Part shown: positions 1 to 6,600 of the stretch, in pieces | How the letters are laid out: each line of letters opens with the position of its first letter | How positions within the stretch are numbered: the stretch's first letter is position 1 | Source: an uncultured Muribaculaceae bacterium | Lineage (GTDB): Bacteria; Bacillota_I; Bacilli_A; RF39; UBA660 | Assembly (NCBI GenBank): GCA_964465245.1 | Contig: CAYXHQ010000057.1 | Location: 1 to 6,600, forward strand | Length of the DNA: 6,600 nucleotides | Reading direction: 5' to 3' | The notes under the pieces: model-generated | Seen by the model: the letters and a program-made list of their open reading frames with translations, nothing else | Database searches by the model: none | What the model was told of the DNA's origin: nothing | Made by a program: the position numbers and the translations under genes

Positions 1-80
1 TAGTATGATAAAGAAAAAAATCCGTAAAAAACGGACTTTAGTCTAAAAATTTACGAATTACTTTGTCAACAGTCTGTAAA

Positions 81-107
81 GACTATAATAAATTATAGTC
101 TTTTTTT
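81..107 (+). terminator. Rho-independent terminator for an upstream, off-window + strand gene
   Basis: A perfect 8-bp stem gactataa (81-88) / ttatagtc (93-100) with a 4-nt loop taaa is followed immediately by T7 (101-107). Confidence 0.6.
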
Positions 108-108
108 G

Positions 109-167
109 TGACTAATTTAAAATACATTCTTTGACTAATTTAAAGTGATGCTATTGACTTATTTAAA
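109..167 (+). repeat. Three direct 13-nt repeats TGACTAATTTAAA with an exact 23-bp period
   Basis: tgactaatttaaa occurs at 109-121 and 132-144 (identical copies). tgacttatttaaa occurs at 155-167 (1 mismatch). The starts at 109, 132 and 155 are spaced exactly 23 bp apart. A fourth, interrupted copy, tgac-cggggggg-ttaaa, lies at 202-218 and overlaps the -35 box. Confidence 0.7.
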
Positions 168-200
168 TCAATCTTAAGAAATTATAATATTCGTTAAGTA

Positions 201-229
201 TTGACCGGGGGGGTTAAATAAGATATAAT
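201..229 (+). promoter_or_regulatory. Sigma70-type promoter of the DGR target gene/operon
   Basis: TTGACC (201-206), a 17-nt spacer (207-223) and TATAAT (224-229). This lies 21 nt upstream of the ATG at 251, with an aaggtaggaaag Shine-Dalgarno region at 236-247. Confidence 0.65.
207..213 (+). repeat. G7 homopolymer inside the promoter spacer (candidate slipped-strand phase-variation tract)
   Basis: ccgggggggtt: seven consecutive G at 207-213, the only long G/C run seen in an otherwise extremely AT-rich window. It lies exactly between the -35 and -10 hexamers. Confidence 0.6.
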
Positions 230-250
230 CTACTTAAGGTAGGAAAGTAT

Positions 251-1858
251 ATGAAGAATAAAAAATTAAACATATTGTTTATTGCTATAATTACATGTTC
301 TATATTTATTTCGAGTGTTTTACTTCAAGCGATAAGTTATAATACAGTAACATTCAATGAAAAAGACACCCTAATAGATAGATACTATAGCGACGTACTT
401 GAACCAAGAAAGAGCGTATTGGTAGAAAGTGCTCCTTTTACATGCACAGGTACTACTAAAATAAGTTGTACTGGCAGTGATAATATTTCTTCAATTTCAG
501 CATCAGAATATAATGCAATCGGAAGAAGGTCTTATCTAACAACGGATGACCCATATTGGGTAACTGGAGATGAAACTGGGACTACTGCAAATAGTGTTAC
601 TATTGATGGATTAAAAGAATTAGCAAAAGAAAATTTATCTGGTGCAAGAGCATCTGTTTATATAAAAGAAAGTACTAAACTTACTGGAAGTGGCACTAGA
701 AGAGACCCTTATAGAATAGAAGAATACATTCCTCCTGTTCCAGAACAAGATGTTAATATTTTAGCAATATATATTGATTGGAATAGTGATGGAGACTATG
801 AAGATAGAGTTGGAGCAGAAGACGAGTCAGTTGCCAGAACTTCTATTCCATCAGATAAAAGTTATGTATTAGATGAGTCTATGACAAATTGTACTAATGG
901 AGAAACTGTTAAATGGAATACGGTATCTAAGTCAATTACTATATCACCCTTAGAAGGACAAACAAGTTGTAGAGTATATCTAAAAAATGTTACAAATTAT
1001 CTAGTAAATGCAATCGCAGAACCTTATAAAACAAATACTGCACAAGGTTCACTGTATAATGAATTTGTAGGCAAATATGTAATAATGGATCCAAGCGTAT
1101 GTAATAGTGCAGGTGTATGTGGACTAATACCTGATCCATACAATAATTTAGCTGTTGCAAATCCACAGTCTGCTTGTAGCTTAAATACTACGGGAGGATT
1201 AACCGATGAATCCACTGGTAACTGTAATGTCAACATAACATATTGTAATTCCTATCCTTCATATCAATCATCCCTTAGAAATTGGAGAATAGTATATGTA
1301 GAAGATTTATACGAACCAACTGATATAACATACAGTAATAAAAATTTAGAAGCAAATATATATATAGTCTCATCTAGAAGTGTAGAATGTAACACTTACA
1401 AAACAAATCCTGCAAATACTATAAGTAATCTTAATAATGCAGCAAAAAAATACTGTAATAATGCAATAGTAGATGGAGGAACTTGCAATAGTACAAACGT
1501 ATATGCATTTAATGGAACAGATTTTGAAAGAATATCAAAGTATACAAGAGGAAGACTAAATTTAGCATCTAACACATTCATCACACTTACTAGTTGCCGG
1601 GATGCCTCAAGCGCTCAATGTTTTAATAGTTCAAAAGATGCAAATAATTTTAATTCGATAGTAAACAATGGCGAATATTATTGGTTTGCTAGTGCAATTG
1701 GCTCTTACGCTGTCTATACCTGGATTCCGGACGCCATGCGTGTGACCAGCAACAACACAAACCCGTTTGGTCTTCGCCCTGTCCTAAAGCTAAAATCTGG
1801 TATCAAATATACGGGTGGAACAGGTACTGCGGAAGATCCGTATAAAATAATACCTTAA
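251..1858 (+). CDS. DGR target (variable) protein; secreted or surface Cys-rich protein with a diversified C-terminal ligand-binding domain
   Basis: A 535-aa ORF with an RBS. The N-terminus MKNKKLNILFIAIITCSIFISSVLL looks like a signal peptide or membrane anchor (a possible non-canonical lipobox at IIT-C). There are many Cys residues. The C-terminal codons 480-505 form the VR matching the TR at 3058-3146. The ...NPFGLRPVLKLK ending resembles the last strand of C-type-lectin-fold DGR variable domains, but the family cannot be assigned by eye. Confidence 0.9.
   Translation: MKNKKLNILFIAIITCSIFISSVLLQAISYNTVTFNEKDTLIDRYYSDVLEPRKSVLVESAPFTCTGTTKISCTGSDNISSISASEYNAIGRRSYLTTDDPYWVTGDETGTTANSVTIDGLKELAKENLSGARASVYIKESTKLTGSGTRRDPYRIEEYIPPVPEQDVNILAIYIDWNSDGDYEDRVGAEDESVARTSIPSDKSYVLDESMTNCTNGETVKWNTVSKSITISPLEGQTSCRVYLKNVTNYLVNAIAEPYKTNTAQGSLYNEFVGKYVIMDPSVCNSAGVCGLIPDPYNNLAVANPQSACSLNTTGGLTDESTGNCNVNITYCNSYPSYQSSLRNWRIVYVEDLYEPTDITYSNKNLEANIYIVSSRSVECNTYKTNPANTISNLNNAAKKYCNNAIVDGGTCNSTNVYAFNGTDFERISKYTRGRLNLASNTFITLTSCRDASSAQCFNSSKDANNFNSIVNNGEYYWFASAIGSYAVYTWIPDAMRVTSNNTNPFGLRPVLKLKSGIKYTGGTGTAEDPYKIIP
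1686..1777 (+). other. DGR variable region (VR)
   Basis: Aligns with the TR at 3058-3146. Every substitution is at a TR adenine and non-A positions are 100% identical. It ends in a shared 14-nt A-free block, cgtttggtcttcgc (1764-1777). Confidence 0.92.
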
Positions 1859-1870
1859 TGGAAAAAAGGA

Positions 1871-1904
1871 ATTCACTAAGTGGGCTTTTAGTCCACTAGT
1901 GAAT
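1871..1904 (+). other. Inverted repeat/hairpin just after the target-gene stop codon (candidate DGR target-site cruciform or attenuator)
   Basis: attcactaagtgg (1871-1883) pairs with ccactagtgaat (1893-1904): a 12-bp stem with one bulged A and a 9-nt loop gcttttagt. No T-run follows on the + strand. An A6 run precedes it, which would be a T-run on the - strand. Confidence 0.5.
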
Positions 1905-1912
1905 GAGTAAAA

Positions 1913-2314
1913 ATGATTGATGATATAAAAAAAGTGGAAAATAATAGTTTGATAATTATACTAGATTTAGATAAATATATTGTTTATTATAATGATATAT
2001 ATATTCTATACTATTTCTTTAACTATAAATATTTTGTTAATAAAAAAGGCAAGTATTTAACAAATAGTTTAAAATACTTAAATAGAGTAATAAAAATATT
2101 AAATGAATATAAAATTAATTATTTAGTATTAGAAAAAAGAAATAATTATAACACTTTAATGAATAAAAAATTTGATGATAATTTTTATAAATATTATATA
2201 AAAAAAGGAAAGACAAAATATAAAAGAAAAAAAATAATTAATAATATGTATAAATCTCTTAAGAAAATTGATAATGTGAGAATACTAAAGATAATAGAGG
2301 AATGTAATTTATGA
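1913..2314 (+). CDS. Small MutS N-terminal-domain-like DGR accessory protein, divergent copy 1
   Basis: A 133-aa ORF paralogous to the next ORF. DKYIVYYN-DIYILYYFFNYK...TNSLKYLNRVIKILNEYKINYLV aligns with GKFYITFNKDAYIVGGIFNYK...INSLAKVINKLENMKINYIV. Its stop overlaps the next start (ATGA at 2311-2314). Confidence 0.6.
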   Translation: MIDDIKKVENNSLIIILDLDKYIVYYNDIYILYYFFNYKYFVNKKGKYLTNSLKYLNRVIKILNEYKINYLVLEKRNNYNTLMNKKFDDNFYKYYIKKGKTKYKRKKIINNMYKSLKKIDNVRILKIIEECNL

Positions 2315-2706
2315 AAGAAAAATATGAAAAAATTAAAAATGAGTATTTAGAATATGTTGTTTTTATTAAAAGCGGAAAATTTTATATAACTTTTAATAAA
2401 GATGCATATATTGTTGGTGGGATTTTTAATTATAAAATAATAAATTCTAAAGTTGGATTTCCTATTAATTCTTTAGCAAAGGTAATTAATAAATTGGAAA
2501 ATATGAAAATCAATTATATAGTTGATAATGATGAAAAGAAAAATTTTAAAAATTTAAATAATTATAATGATTGTTATAAAAGATGTTGTGAATTACAAGA
2601 GAAAAGAAAAAATATTGAAAATATAGTTAAGTGTTTAAATAAATCTATAAATAGTGATGAATTTAATATAATTATTAAAAAAATAAATGGTATTATTAAT
2701 GAATAA
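2311..2706 (+). CDS. Small MutS N-terminal (mismatch-binding domain I)-like DGR accessory protein, copy 2
   Basis: A 131-aa ORF with a gagga RBS about 11 nt upstream. KYEKIKNEYLEYVVFIKSGKFYITFNKDAYIVGGIFNYKII..KVGFPINSLAKVINKLENMKINYIV parallels E. coli MutS [68 protein letters not shown]. It has no ATPase or other MutS domains. Confidence 0.65.
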   Translation: MKEKYEKIKNEYLEYVVFIKSGKFYITFNKDAYIVGGIFNYKIINSKVGFPINSLAKVINKLENMKINYIVDNDEKKNFKNLNNYNDCYKRCCELQEKRKNIENIVKCLNKSINSDEFNIIIKKINGIINE

Positions 2707-3052
2707 TGAAGATAATTTTAAAATTTTTTATTATATCAAAAGATTAATTAAATATTATGATAAAATATTGATTAATTTTCCACATAAAGAATTAGAATTA
2801 AAAAAAATATTAGTTAATGAATTACATTTAATACTTAAATTAAGTTACTTGGCAAATGAATCTAAAAATGATATCAGATATAATTATCAATGTGAAATGG
2901 TTGCTTCTATTAAGTTTGTATGTTTTATAACAGATGAATGTGAAGAAAAGTGTATTATATCTAAAAAACAATATTTATTGATAGGAGAGAATCTCAACAA
3001 TATTTTGAAGTATTTAAAAGGATGGATGAAATCCTGTTTAAAGAAGGTGTAG
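2699..3052 (+). CDS. avd: Avd (accessory variability determinant), four-helix-bundle protein
   Basis: About 117-121 aa and predicted all-helical. LINFPHKELELKKILVNELHLILKLSYLANESKN and IGENLNNILKYLKGWMKS parallel Bordetella-phage bAvd IAQSIPRKHGVAREMFLKCLLGQVELFIVAGKSN and IAEVGRILGSWIAR. It sits immediately upstream of the TR, the canonical avd position. The start is either ATG 2699 (overlapping the upstream stop at 2704-2706) or ATG 2687. Confidence 0.8.
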   Translation: MNNEDNFKIFYYIKRLIKYYDKILINFPHKELELKKILVNELHLILKLSYLANESKNDIRYNYQCEMVASIKFVCFITDECEEKCIISKKQYLLIGENLNNILKYLKGWMKSCLKKV

Positions 3053-3057
3053 AATTG

Positions 3058-3146
3058 TAAATAGTGCAAATGACTCAAACAATGTCTATAACTGGAATCC
3101 GAACAACATGAATGTGAACAACAACACAAACACGTTTGGTCTTCGC
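3058..3146 (+). other. DGR template repeat (TR)
   Basis: Begins 6 nt after the avd stop. Read in the VR frame it is aat agt gca aat gac tca aac aat gtc tat aac tgg aat ccg aac aac atg aat gtg aac aac aac aca aac acg ttt ggt ctt cgc. That gives 13 AAY codons out of 29, and a TGA stop follows immediately. It is non-coding, and the - strand ORF 2887-3231 over it is spurious. Confidence 0.92.
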
Positions 3147-3294
3147 TGATTTCAAATATATGTTTGAATATAATAACTATGTGTTTTATATGAATACGTA
3201 TTTGAACAAATTTTATTCCTTGATTTATCAAAAATTAAAAAAGCAAATTATGGTGTTAGTAAATTAATTTGAAAAGGCTAATAATTTAAAAATC

Positions 3295-3333
3295 TTTTTT
3301 ATTAAAAAGTATTAGGTACTTTTTAATAAGGAA
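3295..3333 (+). promoter_or_regulatory. Long hairpin in the TR-RT spacer that overlaps the RT Shine-Dalgarno sequence
   Basis: The perfect 11-bp core attaaaaagta (3301-3311) / tactttttaat (3317-3327) has a loop ttagg. It can be extended by tttttt (3295-3300) pairing with aaggaa (3328-3333), including G-U pairs, which covers the aagga RBS 8 nt upstream of ATG 3341. Confidence 0.5.
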
Positions 3334-3340
3334 TATTTTT

Positions 3341-4276
3341 ATGAAAAGAATCAACAATATTTATGAAAATTGTTATAATATAAATAATATTTTATTATCT
3401 TTTGATGAAGTTATCTATAAAACTAAAAATAAAAAAGAAGTAAATAAAGCATTATCATTAAAACCAATATATATTTATAATGCATATAATGTTTTGAAAA
3501 ATAGAATATATGCTCCTGGAGATTATATCCATAAAATAATATATGAGCCTAAAAAAAGAGATATTTATTATCAAAATATATTTGATAAACTAATTAATAA
3601 TATAGTATGTAGGAATATACTTATACCTTGTTTAGAACCCTCTTTAATCAATACTTCTGTAGCAAGCAGAAAAAACATGGGTACTCATAAAGGATTAAAA
3701 TTATATTTTGAATATAGAAGGATAATGAATAAAAAATATAAAAAGTATTATATTTTAAAACTTGATATTAAAGGTTATTATAAACACATATCAAAAGAAG
3801 TATTATATAAAAAAGTGTGTAATAAAATTAAAGATAAAGAAGCATTAAAAATAATTTATAACATTATTTTTTCTTTTAAAGAAAGTGGGATTTCTATTGG
3901 AAATATGTCTAGTCAAATATTTGCGTTATATTATCTAAATGAAATTGATCATATGATAAAAGAGGAGTTTAAAATAAAGTATTATATAAGATATCAAGAT
4001 GATTTTATTTTAATGCATAATAATTTAGAAAATTTAAAAAAAGTATTAAATGTTTTAAAAAAAGAATTATTAAATATAAATTTAGAAATAAATAATAAAA
4101 CTAAAATATATTCAAACAAAGATAATATGATTTTTTTGGGTGTAAACAAGTTTGGAAAAAGAAAAATTAAATTTAACAAAATAAAGAATATTAAAAAATC
4201 TTATATGAATGAAAATCTAAATTTAAATCATTACATATTTTTAAAAAAATATTACAAAGAAAAATTGTTTTATTGA
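3341..4276 (+). CDS. DGR reverse transcriptase
   Basis: A 311-aa ORF. RT motifs present are IYEPKKRDIY (1), SVASRKNMGTHKGL (2a), YILKLDIKGYYKHIS (3), GISIGNMSSQIFALYYLNEIDH (4, with the DGR-diagnostic GxxxSQ at nt 3896-3916), YIRYQDDFIL (5, YQDD at 3992-4003) and MIFLG (7). It has no maturase/X, endonuclease or retron-type features. Confidence 0.93.
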   Translation: MKRINNIYENCYNINNILLSFDEVIYKTKNKKEVNKALSLKPIYIYNAYNVLKNRIYAPGDYIHKIIYEPKKRDIYYQNIFDKLINNIVCRNILIPCLEPSLINTSVASRKNMGTHKGLKLYFEYRRIMNKKYKKYYILKLDIKGYYKHISKEVLYKKVCNKIKDKEALKIIYNIIFSFKESGISIGNMSSQIFALYYLNEIDHMIKEEFKIKYYIRYQDDFILMHNNLENLKKVLNVLKKELLNINLEINNKTKIYSNKDNMIFLGVNKFGKRKIKFNKIKNIKKSYMNENLNLNHYIFLKKYYKEKLFY

Positions 4277-4301
4277 TAGAATAATATTTAAATGTTAAAA
4301 T
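4273..4301 (+). promoter_or_regulatory. Possible ffh promoter (extended -10)
   Basis: TTGATA (4273-4278), a 17-nt spacer and TAAAAT (4296-4301) preceded by TGT (4293-4295). Such matches are easy to get by chance in AT-rich DNA. Confidence 0.3.
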
Positions 4302-4325
4302 AAGATATAGAAAAAAGGTGAATAT

Positions 4326-5633
4326 ATGTTTGAGAATTTAAGTGATAAGTTAAGTGGAATACTTAGTAAAGTTAAAGGGTATGGTGTAATTACTGAGGAA
4401 AATATTAGTGAAAGTTTAAGAGAGATTAGACTTTGTTTATTAGGCGCGGACGTTAACTATACTATTGTTAAAGAGTTTGTTGAGAATATTAAAAATAAAG
4501 CTTTGGGAGAAGAAGTTAAAAAAAGTTTAAGACCTGGAGACTTATTTGTTAAAATTGTTAAAGATGAACTTGTTAGTTTGCTTGGAGGTGACTCTAGTCC
4601 TTTAGAAGTAACTAAGAAACCCACCATTGTTATGCTTGCTGGTCTTCAAGGAAGTGGCAAAACTACTACTATTGGTAAACTTGGTGCGATGGTTCGCAAG
4701 AAACATTATAAGAAACCAATCTTTATTGCATGTGATATTTATAGACCAGCTGCGGTGAACCAACTTAAAGATATTGGTAGAAGTCTAGATATTGAAGTAT
4801 ACTCAGAAGACTCTAAAGACGCAGTGCAAATTGCTAAGAATGGAGTGGAGTACGCTAAAAACAATGGATTTGATTATATACTAATAGATACTGCTGGTAG
4901 ACTTCAAATAGATGATACTCTTATGCGAGAGTTAGTAGATATAGAAAGTAGTGTAAGTATAAATGAAACATTACTTGTAATAGATGCAACTATGGGACAA
5001 GATGCAATTAATGTTATAAATGGATTTAATGATAAAATTAAACTTACTGGGTGTATTTTAACAAAGATGGACGGGGACACTAAAGGTGGAGTTGCTTTGT
5101 CTCTACGCTATTTAACACATGTTCCAATTAAGTTTATAGGTGACTCTGAAAAATTAGATGGATTAAGTGAATTTGATCCTACTAGAATGGCATCAAGAAT
5201 AATAGGAGAGGGTGACTTAATGTCTATTATAGAAAAAACTGAATCTGTAATAGATATGGATGAAGCAGCAAAAACAGCTAAAAACTTTGAAAAAGGAAAA
5301 TTTGATTTAGAAGACTTTTTAATTACTATGAAGCAAATAAAGAAAATGGGACCACTTGAGAATTTGTTAAAAATGGTTCCTGGTGCTTCTAAGATGGGTT
5401 TAAACAATGTAAACATAGACCCAAAAATGATGGCGAGAACTGAAGCAATAGTTTTATCAATGACACCATATGAAAGAAGAAACCCTAATGTTTTAAAAGC
5501 TACTAGAAAGATAAGAATATCTGCGGGTTCTGGTGCCTCTGTTGAAGAAGTTAATAGATTACTTAAGCAATTTGAAATGATGCAAGGTATGATGAAAAAA
5601 GTTAAATCTGGTAATTTTAAGATGCCTTTTTAA
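4326..5633 (+). CDS. ffh: Signal recognition particle protein Ffh (SRP54)
   Basis: A 435-aa ORF with an aaggtga RBS. It has an N domain, GTPase motifs GLQGSGKTTT, DTAGR and TKMDGD, and a Met-rich M domain (LENLLKMVPG..., FEMMQGMMKK). Confidence 0.97.
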   Translation: MFENLSDKLSGILSKVKGYGVITEENISESLREIRLCLLGADVNYTIVKEFVENIKNKALGEEVKKSLRPGDLFVKIVKDELVSLLGGDSSPLEVTKKPTIVMLAGLQGSGKTTTIGKLGAMVRKKHYKKPIFIACDIYRPAAVNQLKDIGRSLDIEVYSEDSKDAVQIAKNGVEYAKNNGFDYILIDTAGRLQIDDTLMRELVDIESSVSINETLLVIDATMGQDAINVINGFNDKIKLTGCILTKMDGDTKGGVALSLRYLTHVPIKFIGDSEKLDGLSEFDPTRMASRIIGEGDLMSIIEKTESVIDMDEAAKTAKNFEKGKFDLEDFLITMKQIKKMGPLENLLKMVPGASKMGLNNVNIDPKMMARTEAIVLSMTPYERRNPNVLKATRKIRISAGSGASVEEVNRLLKQFEMMQGMMKKVKSGNFKMPF

Positions 5634-5760: not shown

Positions 5761-6600
5761 ATGGAAAATTTAAAATCAAAAAATTTTAGTGAAAGCATAT
5801 TTGATAATATTAAGCATATCGATGAGTATGGAAATGAGTATTGGTCTGCAAGAGAATTGCAAAAAGTGTTGGAGTATGCTCAATGGAGAAGGTTTGAGAG
5901 TGTTATCAATCGAGCAAAAGAAGCGTGTACGAATAGTAAAAATACTAAAATTGACCATTTTGCCAAGGTTGGCAAAATGGTTCAAATAGGTTCAAATGCT
6001 AAAAAGGAAATTATAGACTATAATTTGTCAAGATATGCATGCTATCTTATTGTGCAAAATGGAGACCCAAAAAAAGATGTAATAGCTTTAGGACAAACTT
6101 ACTTTGCTATTCAAACAAGACGTCAAGAATTGAATGAAATGGAATATAAGAGTTTATCAGAAGATGAAAAAAGATTATATAGAAGAAAGCAAACAAAAGA
6201 CGGAAATAAAATATTATACTCTACTGCTTTAAAAAAAGGGGTAAAAAACTTTGATAAGTTTACTAATTATGGATATAAGGGACTGTATGGTGGTGAGACT
6301 GCTGCAGATATAGCGAAAAGAAAAAAACTTAGATATAGAGAAGACATTCTTGATAATATGGGAAGTACAGAATTAGGTGCTAATATATTTAGAATTACGC
6401 AAACTGAAGAACTATTAAAAACACAAAAAGAAATAAGTGAGAAGATTTCAAATGATACACATTATAAAGTTGGAACTGCTATAAGAAATACAATAAAAAA
6501 GTTAGGCGGTACTATGCCAGAAAAGTTACCTACGCCAAATAAAAGTATAAAAGAATTAGAAAAAGTAAGAACTAACAATAAAATTATAAAAAATAAATAA
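5761..6600 (+). CDS. dinD: DNA-damage-inducible protein D (DinD) family protein
   Basis: A 279-aa ORF with an aaagga RBS. EYWSARELQKVLEYAQWRRFESVINRAKEAC...DHF...IGSNAKKEIIDYNLSRYACYLIVQNGDPKKDVIALGQTYFAIQTRRQE matches the conserved DinD N-terminal pattern. The stop TAA falls at 6598-6600. Confidence 0.8.
   Translation: MENLKSKNFSESIFDNIKHIDEYGNEYWSARELQKVLEYAQWRRFESVINRAKEACTNSKNTKIDHFAKVGKMVQIGSNAKKEIIDYNLSRYACYLIVQNGDPKKDVIALGQTYFAIQTRRQELNEMEYKSLSEDEKRLYRRKQTKDGNKILYSTALKKGVKNFDKFTNYGYKGLYGGETAADIAKRKKLRYREDILDNMGSTELGANIFRITQTEELLKTQKEISEKISNDTHYKVGTAIRNTIKKLGGTMPEKLPTPNKSIKELEKVRTNNKIIKNK

Follow-up and report, generated by a model that had tools for sequence, protein, structure and literature searches.

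A diversity-generating retroelement with tandem MutS-like genes and signs of recent activity on a 6.6-kb Firmicute contig

The stretch of DNA analysed here, in the following referred to as the window, comprises 6,600 nucleotides (nt) of contig CAYXHQ010000057.1 and contains seven genes, all of which are encoded on the plus strand according to the list of open reading frames (ORFs) and the sequence itself. Five of these genes and a pair of related repeats make up a compact cassette of 4.1 kb that is very probably a functional, chromosomally located diversity-generating retroelement (DGR) of the class combining MutS-like (MSL) proteins with Avd. The cassette begins with the target gene (251-1858) for a variable protein of 535 amino acids (aa), which has a hydrophobic signal or anchor at its N-terminus and the variable repeat (VR) in its C-terminal domain of about 290 aa. 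ORF-A or MSLa (1913-2314, 133 aa) and ORF-B or MSLb (2311-2706, 131 aa) follow, then avd (2687-3052), the template repeat (TR, 3058-3146), which starts 6 nt past the avd stop codon, a spacer (Sp) RNA region of 194 nt (3147-3340) and the gene for a reverse transcriptase (RT) of 311 aa (3341-4276). All five cassette ORFs are intact. The initial annotation of this DNA had proposed a co-directional series of promoter, target gene with VR, two small ORFs, avd, TR, spacer and RT gene, and these elements were found at, or within a few bases of, the positions then assigned to them. The order of target/VR, avd, TR and RT on a single strand is also, as had been noted, that of the DGR of Bordetella phage BPP-1. 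Elements of this class are already described and form a large MSL-plus-Avd clade that stems mostly from metagenome-assembled genomes (MAGs) of Firmicutes. The distinctive traits of the present locus are a rare tandem pair of MSL genes, evidence for recent activity in nature and length variants that arise by codon slippage.

The assignment as a DGR is carried by the relation between the two repeats. The VR (1686-1777, 92 nt), delimited by a repeat search and local alignment to the TR, ends 27 codons before the stop codon of the target gene and differs from the 89-nt TR by 18 substitutions and one in-frame insertion of 3 nt. All 18 substitutions fall on TR adenines and none on the 53 non-A positions (hypergeometric P=3e-9); the TR/VR similarity claimed in the initial annotation is therefore real on a computed alignment, and it is adenine-specific. 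The TR contains 36 adenines; read in the frame of the target gene, it has 13 AAY codons interspersed with conserved scaffold codons, no adenine change converts a TR codon into a stop codon, and about 6e18 different proteins are possible at fixed length. The GC content of the VR exceeds that of the TR (52% versus 37%), as is expected when adenines are replaced. Both repeats share an identical 3' segment of 14 nt (CGTTTGGTCTTCGC, 1764-1777 in the VR) without any variable position, the first base of which is G in the second allele described below (L001). The homology between TR and VR stops after this segment, and the boundary resembles an initiation of mutagenic homing (IMH) site as far as its sequence goes. 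A weak, imperfect inverted repeat connects 1768-1783 with 1819-1841. No other TR-like repeat occurs in the window.

An exact look-up of the RT protein led to one other contig, L001 (Logan sample SRR8925823), which is 99.3% identical to window positions 80-4911 (4.8 kb). The two sequences are distinguished by 27 point differences, 23 of which, along with a 9-nt insertion in L001, lie inside the VR (1696-1764) at positions of TR adenines, while four are found outside the VR in 4.7 kb. The TR is identical in both, and 20 of the 21 substitutions that separate the L001 VR from it are located at adenines (P=3e-9). Since near-identical strains with the same TR possess different VRs, homing must have occurred after the strains diverged, and the compared sequences thus point to mutagenic retrohoming in nature by an element that has recently been active. 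The single non-adenine change in L001 (TR ACG to VR AGG, C to G, near 1693, where the window VR has the codon ACG/CCG) lies beside a slipped AAC tract and fits the low-level non-A errors that have been reported for some DGR lineages. In this tract, the TR has (AAC)3 after a GTG codon, where the VRs of the window and of L001 contain four and seven AAC-derived codons, respectively, so that they exceed the TR by one and four codons. These AAC-derived codons have each been mutated independently. In-frame (3n) insertions or deletions between TR and VR at AAC runs were also encountered in the related loci L002, L005, L046, L051 and L063; L002 has two VRs, one with a 3-nt insertion relative to the TR and one without. 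The length difference between TR and VR is a case of RT slippage on (AAC)3, a phenomenon that has been published before: differences in TR/VR length were reported for 7% of DGRs, mostly beside AAC repeats, and RT slippage was proposed as their origin (Wu et al. 2018, PMC5758913), a model that was repeated in a paper from 2026. The proteins of the window are known solely from the one NCBI contig and the one Logan sample, and scans of JGI metagenome contigs for exact patterns and for the RT yielded no close relative that could have provided further alleles.

By motif and similarity comparison the RT is classified as a DGR reverse transcriptase. It matches Pfam RVT_1 (5e-17) and is 30% identical over 190 aa to bRT, the RT of BPP-1 (BLASTP E=9e-28). 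Its best match in the PDB is the 328-aa RT of entries 8ub7-8ube (9e-21 for 8ub7), which matches the Bordetella phage bRT, followed at a distance by group II RTs (3.5e-7 and 1e-6) and Drt3a (3e-6). The signature motif IGNMSSQ (residues 186-192) and the catalytic motif YQDD (218-221) are present, the former being invariant across 30 members of the clade. DGR RTs are marked by the signature [I/V/L]GxxxSQ, whereas group II and retroviral RTs have QGxxxSP at this site (PMC7826257). Residue R73 is the counterpart of R74 in bRT, where positions 74 and 181 promote adenine mutagenesis. The initial placement of the RT among DGR enzymes rather than retron, group II or Abi RTs thus agrees with the similarity searches.

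At E<1e-5 there are 746 relatives of the RT, with identities of no more than 56%. A scan of one genome per species recorded RT relatives with 43-53% identity in at least 588 MAG species, from which 80 GTDB-representative loci were kept for comparison and annotated with hidden Markov models. Almost all of these stem from gut or rumen MAGs labelled Clostridia, Clostridium, Bacilli, Firmicutes or Tenericutes; most record titles read Clostridia or Clostridium, and the loci closest to that of the window, which share its tandem MSL genes, bear the labels Bacilli or Firmicutes and, in one case, Clostridium sp. The taxonomic placement of the window follows from these relatives. In most of the 80 loci an MSL gene and avd are syntenic with the RT gene, the standard layout being MSL-avd-(TR)-RT. 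In a second layout one MSL gene directly precedes the RT gene while avd and another MSL gene reside on the opposite strand. The order MSLa-MSLb-avd-TR-RT was found exclusively in the closest relatives of the window, and the tandem pair marks a rare sub-lineage. In these relatives a second target gene with its own VR sits directly downstream of the RT gene (L002 6986-8950, L061 5461-7428, L017 7939-10332, L049 7939-8943), at the place taken by ffh in the window.

The ORF preceding the TR encodes a basic protein with a pI of 9.0 that consists of 121 aa if translation starts at ATG 2687 or of 117 aa if it starts at the in-frame ATG 2699. It is matched over its full length by Pfam bAvd (2.8e-4) and NCBIfam DivGenRetAVD (6e-6), both below their curated cut-offs. 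The 23 aligned orthologues without exception match DivGenRetAVD (best 2e-15), and 21 of them match Pfam bAvd, which bears out the initial call. Pairwise comparison with bAvd by BLASTP or hhalign uncovered no similarity, a search of the PDB with the single sequence returned nothing meaningful, and the family profile found no significant PDB match. Since the PDB and bAvd comparisons were not significant, the identification rests on the Pfam and NCBIfam profiles, and the 121-aa ORF is accepted on the strength of these sequence matches as Avd, which in DGRs is a basic accessory protein with a four-helix bundle.

The two ORFs between the target gene and avd had been described as similar to MutS domain I. 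For MSLb, which consists of this domain and a C-terminal helical tail, this follows from a Pfam MutS_I match above the cut-off (2.8e-8), and its sequence clearly identifies it as a member of the MSL family. MSLa shares 43% identity with MSLb over 51 aa (BLASTP E=6e-6), and its family aligns with the MSL family in hhalign with a probability of 99.5% (E=3e-23, 146 columns), so that MSLa is, by these comparisons, a diverged MSL paralog. The MSL family profile matches domain I of MutS, MSH6 and MSH3 in the PDB and aligns to MutS residues ~13-102, including the motif around Phe36; a PDB search with the single MSLb sequence gave nothing meaningful. In E. coli MutS the mismatch-binding motif reads GDFYE (GxFYE) and contains the mismatch-stacking Phe36 as well as Glu38. 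When aligned to E. coli MutS, almost every MSL has retained Gly and Phe of GxFYE and lost the Glu. MSLb follows this pattern (GKFYI), whereas both Gly and Phe are missing from MSLa (LDKYI). The same change (D.DKYY) characterizes the full-length orthologues at the position of MSLa in L002, L017, L061, L023 and L049. MSLa-type proteins are rare: a search of 1.84 billion representatives produced 18 matches at E<=1e-3, several of which are ordinary MSLs. The MSL proteins of the window are basic (pI 9.2-9.7, the upper value being that of MSLa), and HRDC is not among the profile matches of the window proteins. The gene for a third subtype of MSL (motif LFKSGIF[FY]I) adjoins the RT gene in those loci where avd and a regular MSL gene lie on the opposite strand (L016, L021, L025, L027, L029, L064, L065, L068 and L070), and in one RT relative, P0032 (448 aa), the RT is fused to MutS_I, a type of fusion that was noted by Wu et al. 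too. The initial annotation regarded the two ORFs as additions to the minimal system. This is correct, yet they are no unknown extension, for the MSL ('MutS-like') family was named in 2018, when 16 of 372 DGRs proved to encode it, in each case along with avd ('Architecture D', including the Legionella DGR; PMC5758913), and MSL genes are the norm in the RT clade of the window. Msl has also been noted in the Bfr, Bth and Bun DGRs of Bacteroides (bioRxiv 10.1101/2024.11.15.621889).

The target is concluded to be a secreted or surface-exposed ligand-binding protein with a DUF6273-like variable domain, the assignment of the fold being indirect. No Pfam family covers this domain, which is common to the targets of related DGR loci. 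The C-terminal ~290 aa of the target are 51% identical to P0126, a non-diversified paralog (L163 945-2324) from the same sample as L001 that starts with a Pfam N_methyl match (1.5e-5); a search of P0126 for a second VR revealed no match to the TR. Because the model of the window domain itself was unusable, the representative P0128 (BLASTP E=5e-7 to the window domain) was modelled instead, with a pLDDT of 83.9 overall and above 90 for most of residues 110-338. Foldseek found no match for this model in the PDB at E<=1e-3, and for this reason no direct tie to Mtd, TvpA or other solved variable proteins can be drawn. The model does match a phage/viral DUF6273 protein (E=2.8e-5, probability 1.0, TM 0.33), while at the sequence level similarity to DUF6273 is marginal, with matches in three of the 93 members of the family (best 0.002). 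DUF6273 is already known from DGR targets and is considered C-type-lectin-like by others, with the VR at its C-terminus (PMC10743442). The type IV pilin motif N_methyl was detected in 21 of the 93 family members and had no match in the window target. Many DGR targets in the clade thus seem to resemble pilins that bear a lectin-like variable head, and no description of pilin-like DGR targets in Firmicutes was found in the literature searched. In the subgroup to which the window belongs, our own reading of the N-termini suggests a signal peptide resembling the SipW/TasA type, for which a weak Peptidase_M73 match in L049 is the only support from family searches.

Downstream of the TR, an 8-bp stem connects 3151-3158 (TTCAAATA) with 3199-3206 (TATTTGAA), encloses a hairpin and is followed by unpaired CAAAT. 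In the relatives this TR-flank:spacer duplex occurs in at least ten covarying Watson-Crick versions, among them TCCTAAAT/ATTTAGGA, TTCTGTTAA/TTAACAGAA, TTCTATA/TATAGAA, TTCTACA/TGTAGAA, TTCTAAAA/TTTTAGAA, TTCTTTAAA/TTTAAAGAA and TTCTCTAAA/TTTAGAGAA, and always continues with (A)CA(A/G)A. Six loci that were folded independently adopt the same outer stem and inner hairpin. RNAalifold recovered seven pairs when applied to a MAFFT alignment of 27 spacers; as MAFFT had put the arms of the duplex out of register, the duplex was scored in each sequence individually by a script. In BPP-1, TR nt 118-129 pair with spacer nt 47-56, and cDNA synthesis is primed from Sp A56 (bioRxiv 10.1101/2023.10.23.563531); a stem-loop just past the TR binds Avd. 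In view of the covariation and the likeness to BPP-1, the stem 3151-3158:3199-3206 is proposed to be the template:primer duplex, and A3206, at position 60 of the spacer, or one of its neighbours would be the nucleotide that primes, which would place the start of the cDNA near T3150. A counterpart of the BPP-1 'cPRT stop' duplex was sought between the avd 3' end and the spacer, and no convincing pairing emerged.

Further spacer elements are conserved in the clade, namely ACA[AG]A, TCCTT with a small hairpin (3220-3231), GTGTTAGTAA (3253-3262) and GAAAAGGC (3271-3278), the latter two being flanked by pairing of 3245-3251 with 3281-3287; in the clade at large the downstream part of the spacer preserves TGTTAGTA and GAAA(A/G)GG, enclosed by a covarying stem. 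An A/U-rich hairpin of 25 bp (3287-3341) reaches as far as the A of the start codon of the RT gene, whose Shine-Dalgarno sequence (AAGGAA, 3330-3335) is buried in it. The position of the hairpin is kept with a different sequence in L002, L061, L017 and L049. Its possible roles are to set the 3' end of the DGR RNA and to limit expression of the RT. The equivalent element in at least 18 of 31 relatives consists of a GC stem and a subsequent T-run and has the appearance of an intrinsic terminator that separates spacer RNA from RT gene. A scan of the window against Rfam at E<=1 gave no matches, which places the spacer RNA outside the curated families.

The junctions between the genes had been taken to be overlapping or nearly so. 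This holds for MSLa and MSLb, which are coupled by ATGA at 2311-2314 (MSLb start codon at 2311, MSLa stop codon TGA at 2312-2314), and for avd, which overlaps the MSLb stop codon (2704-2706) by 8 or 20 nt depending on the choice of its start codon. Not all junctions are tight, however, because the target gene is parted from MSLa by a gap of 54 nt that harbours a strong hairpin of 15 bp (8+7) at 1871-1903 without a T-run behind it. Folded as DNA, the region 1764-1915 has a z-score of -3.6, and none of 200 shuffled sequences folds as well. The hairpin could be an RNA 3'-end or stability element that separates the target mRNA from the genes for the machinery.

A sigma-70-type promoter (TTGACC-17-TATAAT, 201-229) with 11 of 12 consensus positions precedes the target gene and is the best such site in the window. 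Overall the window has a GC content of 26%, and promoter-like sites as a class are not enriched in it (53 found versus 50.2 expected from shuffled sequence); the promoter match taken by itself is therefore weak evidence. Within the 17-nt promoter spacer lies a run of seven G residues (207-213), the sole run of six or more G in the window, which both contigs of this element possess and the relatives L002, L061, L017 and L049 lack. Slippage in this run would shift the spacing between the -35 and -10 elements and could render the target/DGR operon phase-variable. Three direct repeats of 14 nt (G/TTGACTWATTTAAA) begin at 108, 131 and 154, thus 23 nt apart, upstream of the promoter (108-167). For TTGACTWATTTAAA, three matches compare with 0.07 expected, and none of 200 shuffles reached three. 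Judged by sequence, the repeats may be a series of sites at which a regulator binds; the TTGACC of the promoter at 201 almost continues their register (154+47). Still further upstream are two terminator-like hairpins (17-39 and 70-105), the first of which is flagged on both strands and followed by a T-run; they suggest that the cassette is insulated from the gene upstream. The GC content of the machinery genes is low (MSLa 13.8%, MSLb 16.0%, RT 16.8%, avd 19.6%) compared to ffh (32%) and the target gene (33%), which may reflect foreign origin or weak constraint. Genetic code 4 (Mycoplasma-type) was considered and ruled out, as all eight Trp codons counted in the target gene and dinD are TGG; target, ffh, RT and dinD were checked for in-frame TGA, and none was present.

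The cassette is followed by ffh (4326-5633), encoding SRP54 domains, 50 nt downstream of the RT gene, and by a truncated dinD homologue (5761-6600) with a Bro-N domain that runs off the end of the contig. The usual neighbour of ffh is rpsP, which is not present at the ffh of the window. The initial annotation had described the cassette as apparently chromosomal, next to ffh, because no phage or transposase genes flank it in the window. Adjacency to ffh stands, and RTs from viral sources are distant relatives (at most 36% identity in IMG/VR and less than 40% in phage records); for these two reasons a cellular, i.e. chromosomal, location is likely on this 6.6-kb contig. Carriage by a prophage or another mobile element, with the target serving as a phage receptor-binding protein as in BPP-1, is very unlikely in our estimation, although the contig is short and offers no more than 200 nt upstream of the cassette, the machinery with its 14-20% GC next to 32% in ffh could be of foreign origin, gut phages frequently have DUF6273-type targets (PMC10743442, PMC11792537), and the last ORF contains Bro-N. 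With 354 bits at a cut-off of 242 and an E of 5e-106, however, NCBIfam identifies that ORF as a full-length DinD equivalog. Apart from the adjoining ffh and the distance of all viral RTs, a cellular setting is favoured by the signal or anchor at the N-terminus of the target, by relatives with type IV pilin or SipW-type N-termini and by the genes that precede the cassettes of L002, L061 and L017, which according to our reading of their translated 3' ends are endonuclease IV-like housekeeping genes. There is practically no chance that the RT belongs to a group II intron, a retron, an Abi system or a DRT and that the repeat is a coincidence. Among NCBIfam models group_II_RT_mat scores best (2e-22), followed by Drt3a (1.4e-14); both scores, however, are far below the cut-offs, a DGR RT model is not among the matches at E<=0.1, the enzyme is closer to bRT and carries IGxxxSQ instead of QGxxxSP, intron RNA domains are absent in line with the empty Rfam scan, and the RT gene is flanked by avd and an adenine-specific TR/VR pair, the statistics of which already refute this explanation.

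It is likewise highly improbable that the cassette is a fossil, in which the TR/VR pattern persists as a historical trace and the target is no longer diversified. Such decay would be compatible with a Lys at position 65 of the RT, where the clade has a nearly invariant Phe, with the burial of the RT ribosome-binding site in a hairpin and with the small number of alleles, of which there are two. Against it stand the five intact ORFs, the preserved YQDD and IGNMSSQ motifs and the concentration of 23 adenine-templated differences and a 9-nt length difference within the VR as opposed to four differences in the remaining 4.7 kb, with identical TRs. Somewhat less improbable, but unlikely nonetheless, is the proposition that MSLa is not a working part of the DGR and that a single functional MSL is encoded, MSLa being either a copy of MSLb in decay or a small basic protein without relation to it. 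MSLa has no Pfam match of its own, nine of ten MSLa-type proteins lack a MutS_I match, the key Gly and Phe are lost and the GC content of the gene is extremely low (13.8%). Full-length orthologues with D.DKYY occupy the same position in the five loci named above, though, about ten further representatives exist, the similarity to MSL spans the entire length of the protein, and its gene is translationally coupled to that of MSLb via ATGA.

Several observations weigh against the interpretation of the locus as a functional DGR with the parts assigned here. Avd and MSLa both score below curated family cut-offs, and their identification draws on evidence at the family level. The evidence for activity is provided by two alleles. 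The hairpins over the RT ribosome-binding site and behind the target gene could break the picture of a single operon. The AlphaFold2 model of the window's C-terminal domain is poor (pLDDT 44.6 with 67 sequences), and the assignment of a C-type-lectin fold to the target on the basis of modelling is indirect. The role given to the MSL proteins is inferred throughout. Since neither copy has lost the Phe where the clade shows other layouts with two MSLs, a division of labour between the copies, as considered below, would apply to the present sub-lineage at most. Finally, DGRs feature an IMH and, 4-34 bp past the VR, a GC-rich hairpin or cruciform that has a GRNA loop (PMC3240598); no such canonical hairpin was found in this interval, and the sole strong hairpin lies 93 nt downstream and has a TTT loop.

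Taken together, the locus as a functional DGR would operate as follows. A transcript starting near 236 would cover target gene, MSLa, MSLb, avd, TR and spacer and, through read-through, the RT gene as well. Its avd-3'/TR/spacer portion would fold such that 3151-3158 pair with 3199-3206, as covariation and the BPP-1 precedent suggest, and this duplex would present an adenosine next to unpaired sequence (about A3206) from which a complex of RT and Avd could prime cDNA synthesis. The pattern of differences shows copying of the TR by the RT to be faithful except opposite adenines, with occasional slips by whole codons at (AAC)3. The cDNA would then replace the VR (1686-1777) with the help of the invariant 14-nt homology at its 3' end, homing as such being apparent from the VRs of the two strains. 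The outcome would be some 6e18 variants, plus length variants, of the DUF6273-like ligand-binding surface at the C-terminus of a secreted or surface protein.

The MSL pair would probably act on the heavily mismatched cDNA:VR heteroduplex. In B. ovatus, deletion of the host mutS gene raises retrohoming 5- to 10-fold, with an all-or-nothing pattern (bioRxiv 10.1101/2024.11.15.621889), and it is because of this finding that MSL is most simply viewed, by analogy, as a protector of the mismatched intermediate that shields it from host MutS. MSLb would be the partner that contacts mismatches, and MSLa, having lost Gly and Phe, the one that does not. A more far-reaching version, which we put forward tentatively and consider rather doubtful, is that MSLa and MSLb form an asymmetric, MutS-mimicking heterodimer that coats the mismatched and sometimes looped cDNA:VR intermediate and blocks its all-or-nothing repair by host MutS. 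With MSLb touching the mismatches and MSLa not, as in MSH6/MSH2, such a dimer might permit adenine mutagenesis as well as length changes by whole codons, although the odds are against this part of the proposal just as much. If true, this would be the first function assigned to the MSL family and a dedicated anti-mismatch-repair device within a retroelement.

No prokaryotic systems for targeted protein hypermutation other than DGRs are known, and DGRs are in development as tools for directed evolution. The locus described here adds a compact, apparently active DGR from a very AT-rich, little-sampled gut-type Firmicute and allows priming duplex and spacer RNA to be compared cleanly over a large clade dominated by Firmicute MAGs. 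The asymmetry of its MSL pair suggests a testable role in the evasion of mismatch repair. Current understanding is not overturned; the variation in length is a clean natural illustration of a published phenomenon, with two alleles demonstrating that VRs of unequal length can arise from one TR.

Among known systems the BPP-1 DGR (mtd-avd-TR-Sp-brt) is the obvious reference. Both elements have the order target/VR, avd, TR, spacer and RT on one strand, in both the TR begins directly past avd, the RTs are 30% identical and share IGxxxSQ, and the strand of the spacer that pairs with the TR 3' end has an adenosine as its last nucleotide, at similar spacer positions (Sp60 in the window, Sp A56 in BPP-1). 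The window differs in its cellular rather than phage location, in the two MSL genes between target gene and avd, in its shorter TR (89 versus 134 nt), in the lack of a GC-rich GRNA hairpin right after the VR, in an Avd that is not detectably similar to bAvd in pairwise comparison and in a target that is not Mtd-like. With the MSL-containing DGRs of 'Architecture D' (PMC5758913) it has in common a small MutS-domain-I protein encoded with avd in the cassette and insertions or deletions by multiples of 3 bp beside AAC repeats, as reported for part of the DGR tree. Unlike these, it possesses two tandem MSLs, one of them devoid of the Gly and Phe of the mismatch-binding motif, and its MSLs are basic (pI 9.2-9.7), whereas the published set is described as roughly neutral. 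The DUF6273 targets of DGRs in gut Firmicutes and phages (tentaclins of phages nd4/nd12, PMC10743442; Faecalibacterium prophages, PMC11792537) also carry the VR at the C-terminus of a globular domain, the P0128 model matches a DUF6273 protein and the domain ends in G[LV]RP, but in the present family the domain belongs to cellular proteins, which begin with a pilin-type N-terminus or a signal peptide, and not to phage tail proteins. As to domain I of MutS and MSH6, the MSL profile covers MutS residues ~13-102 with the motif around Phe36. The MSLs are distinguished by the lack of connector, clamp and ATPase domains and of a conserved Glu38; MSLa, which is also without the Phe, recalls by analogy the non-contacting subunit of asymmetric MutS dimers.

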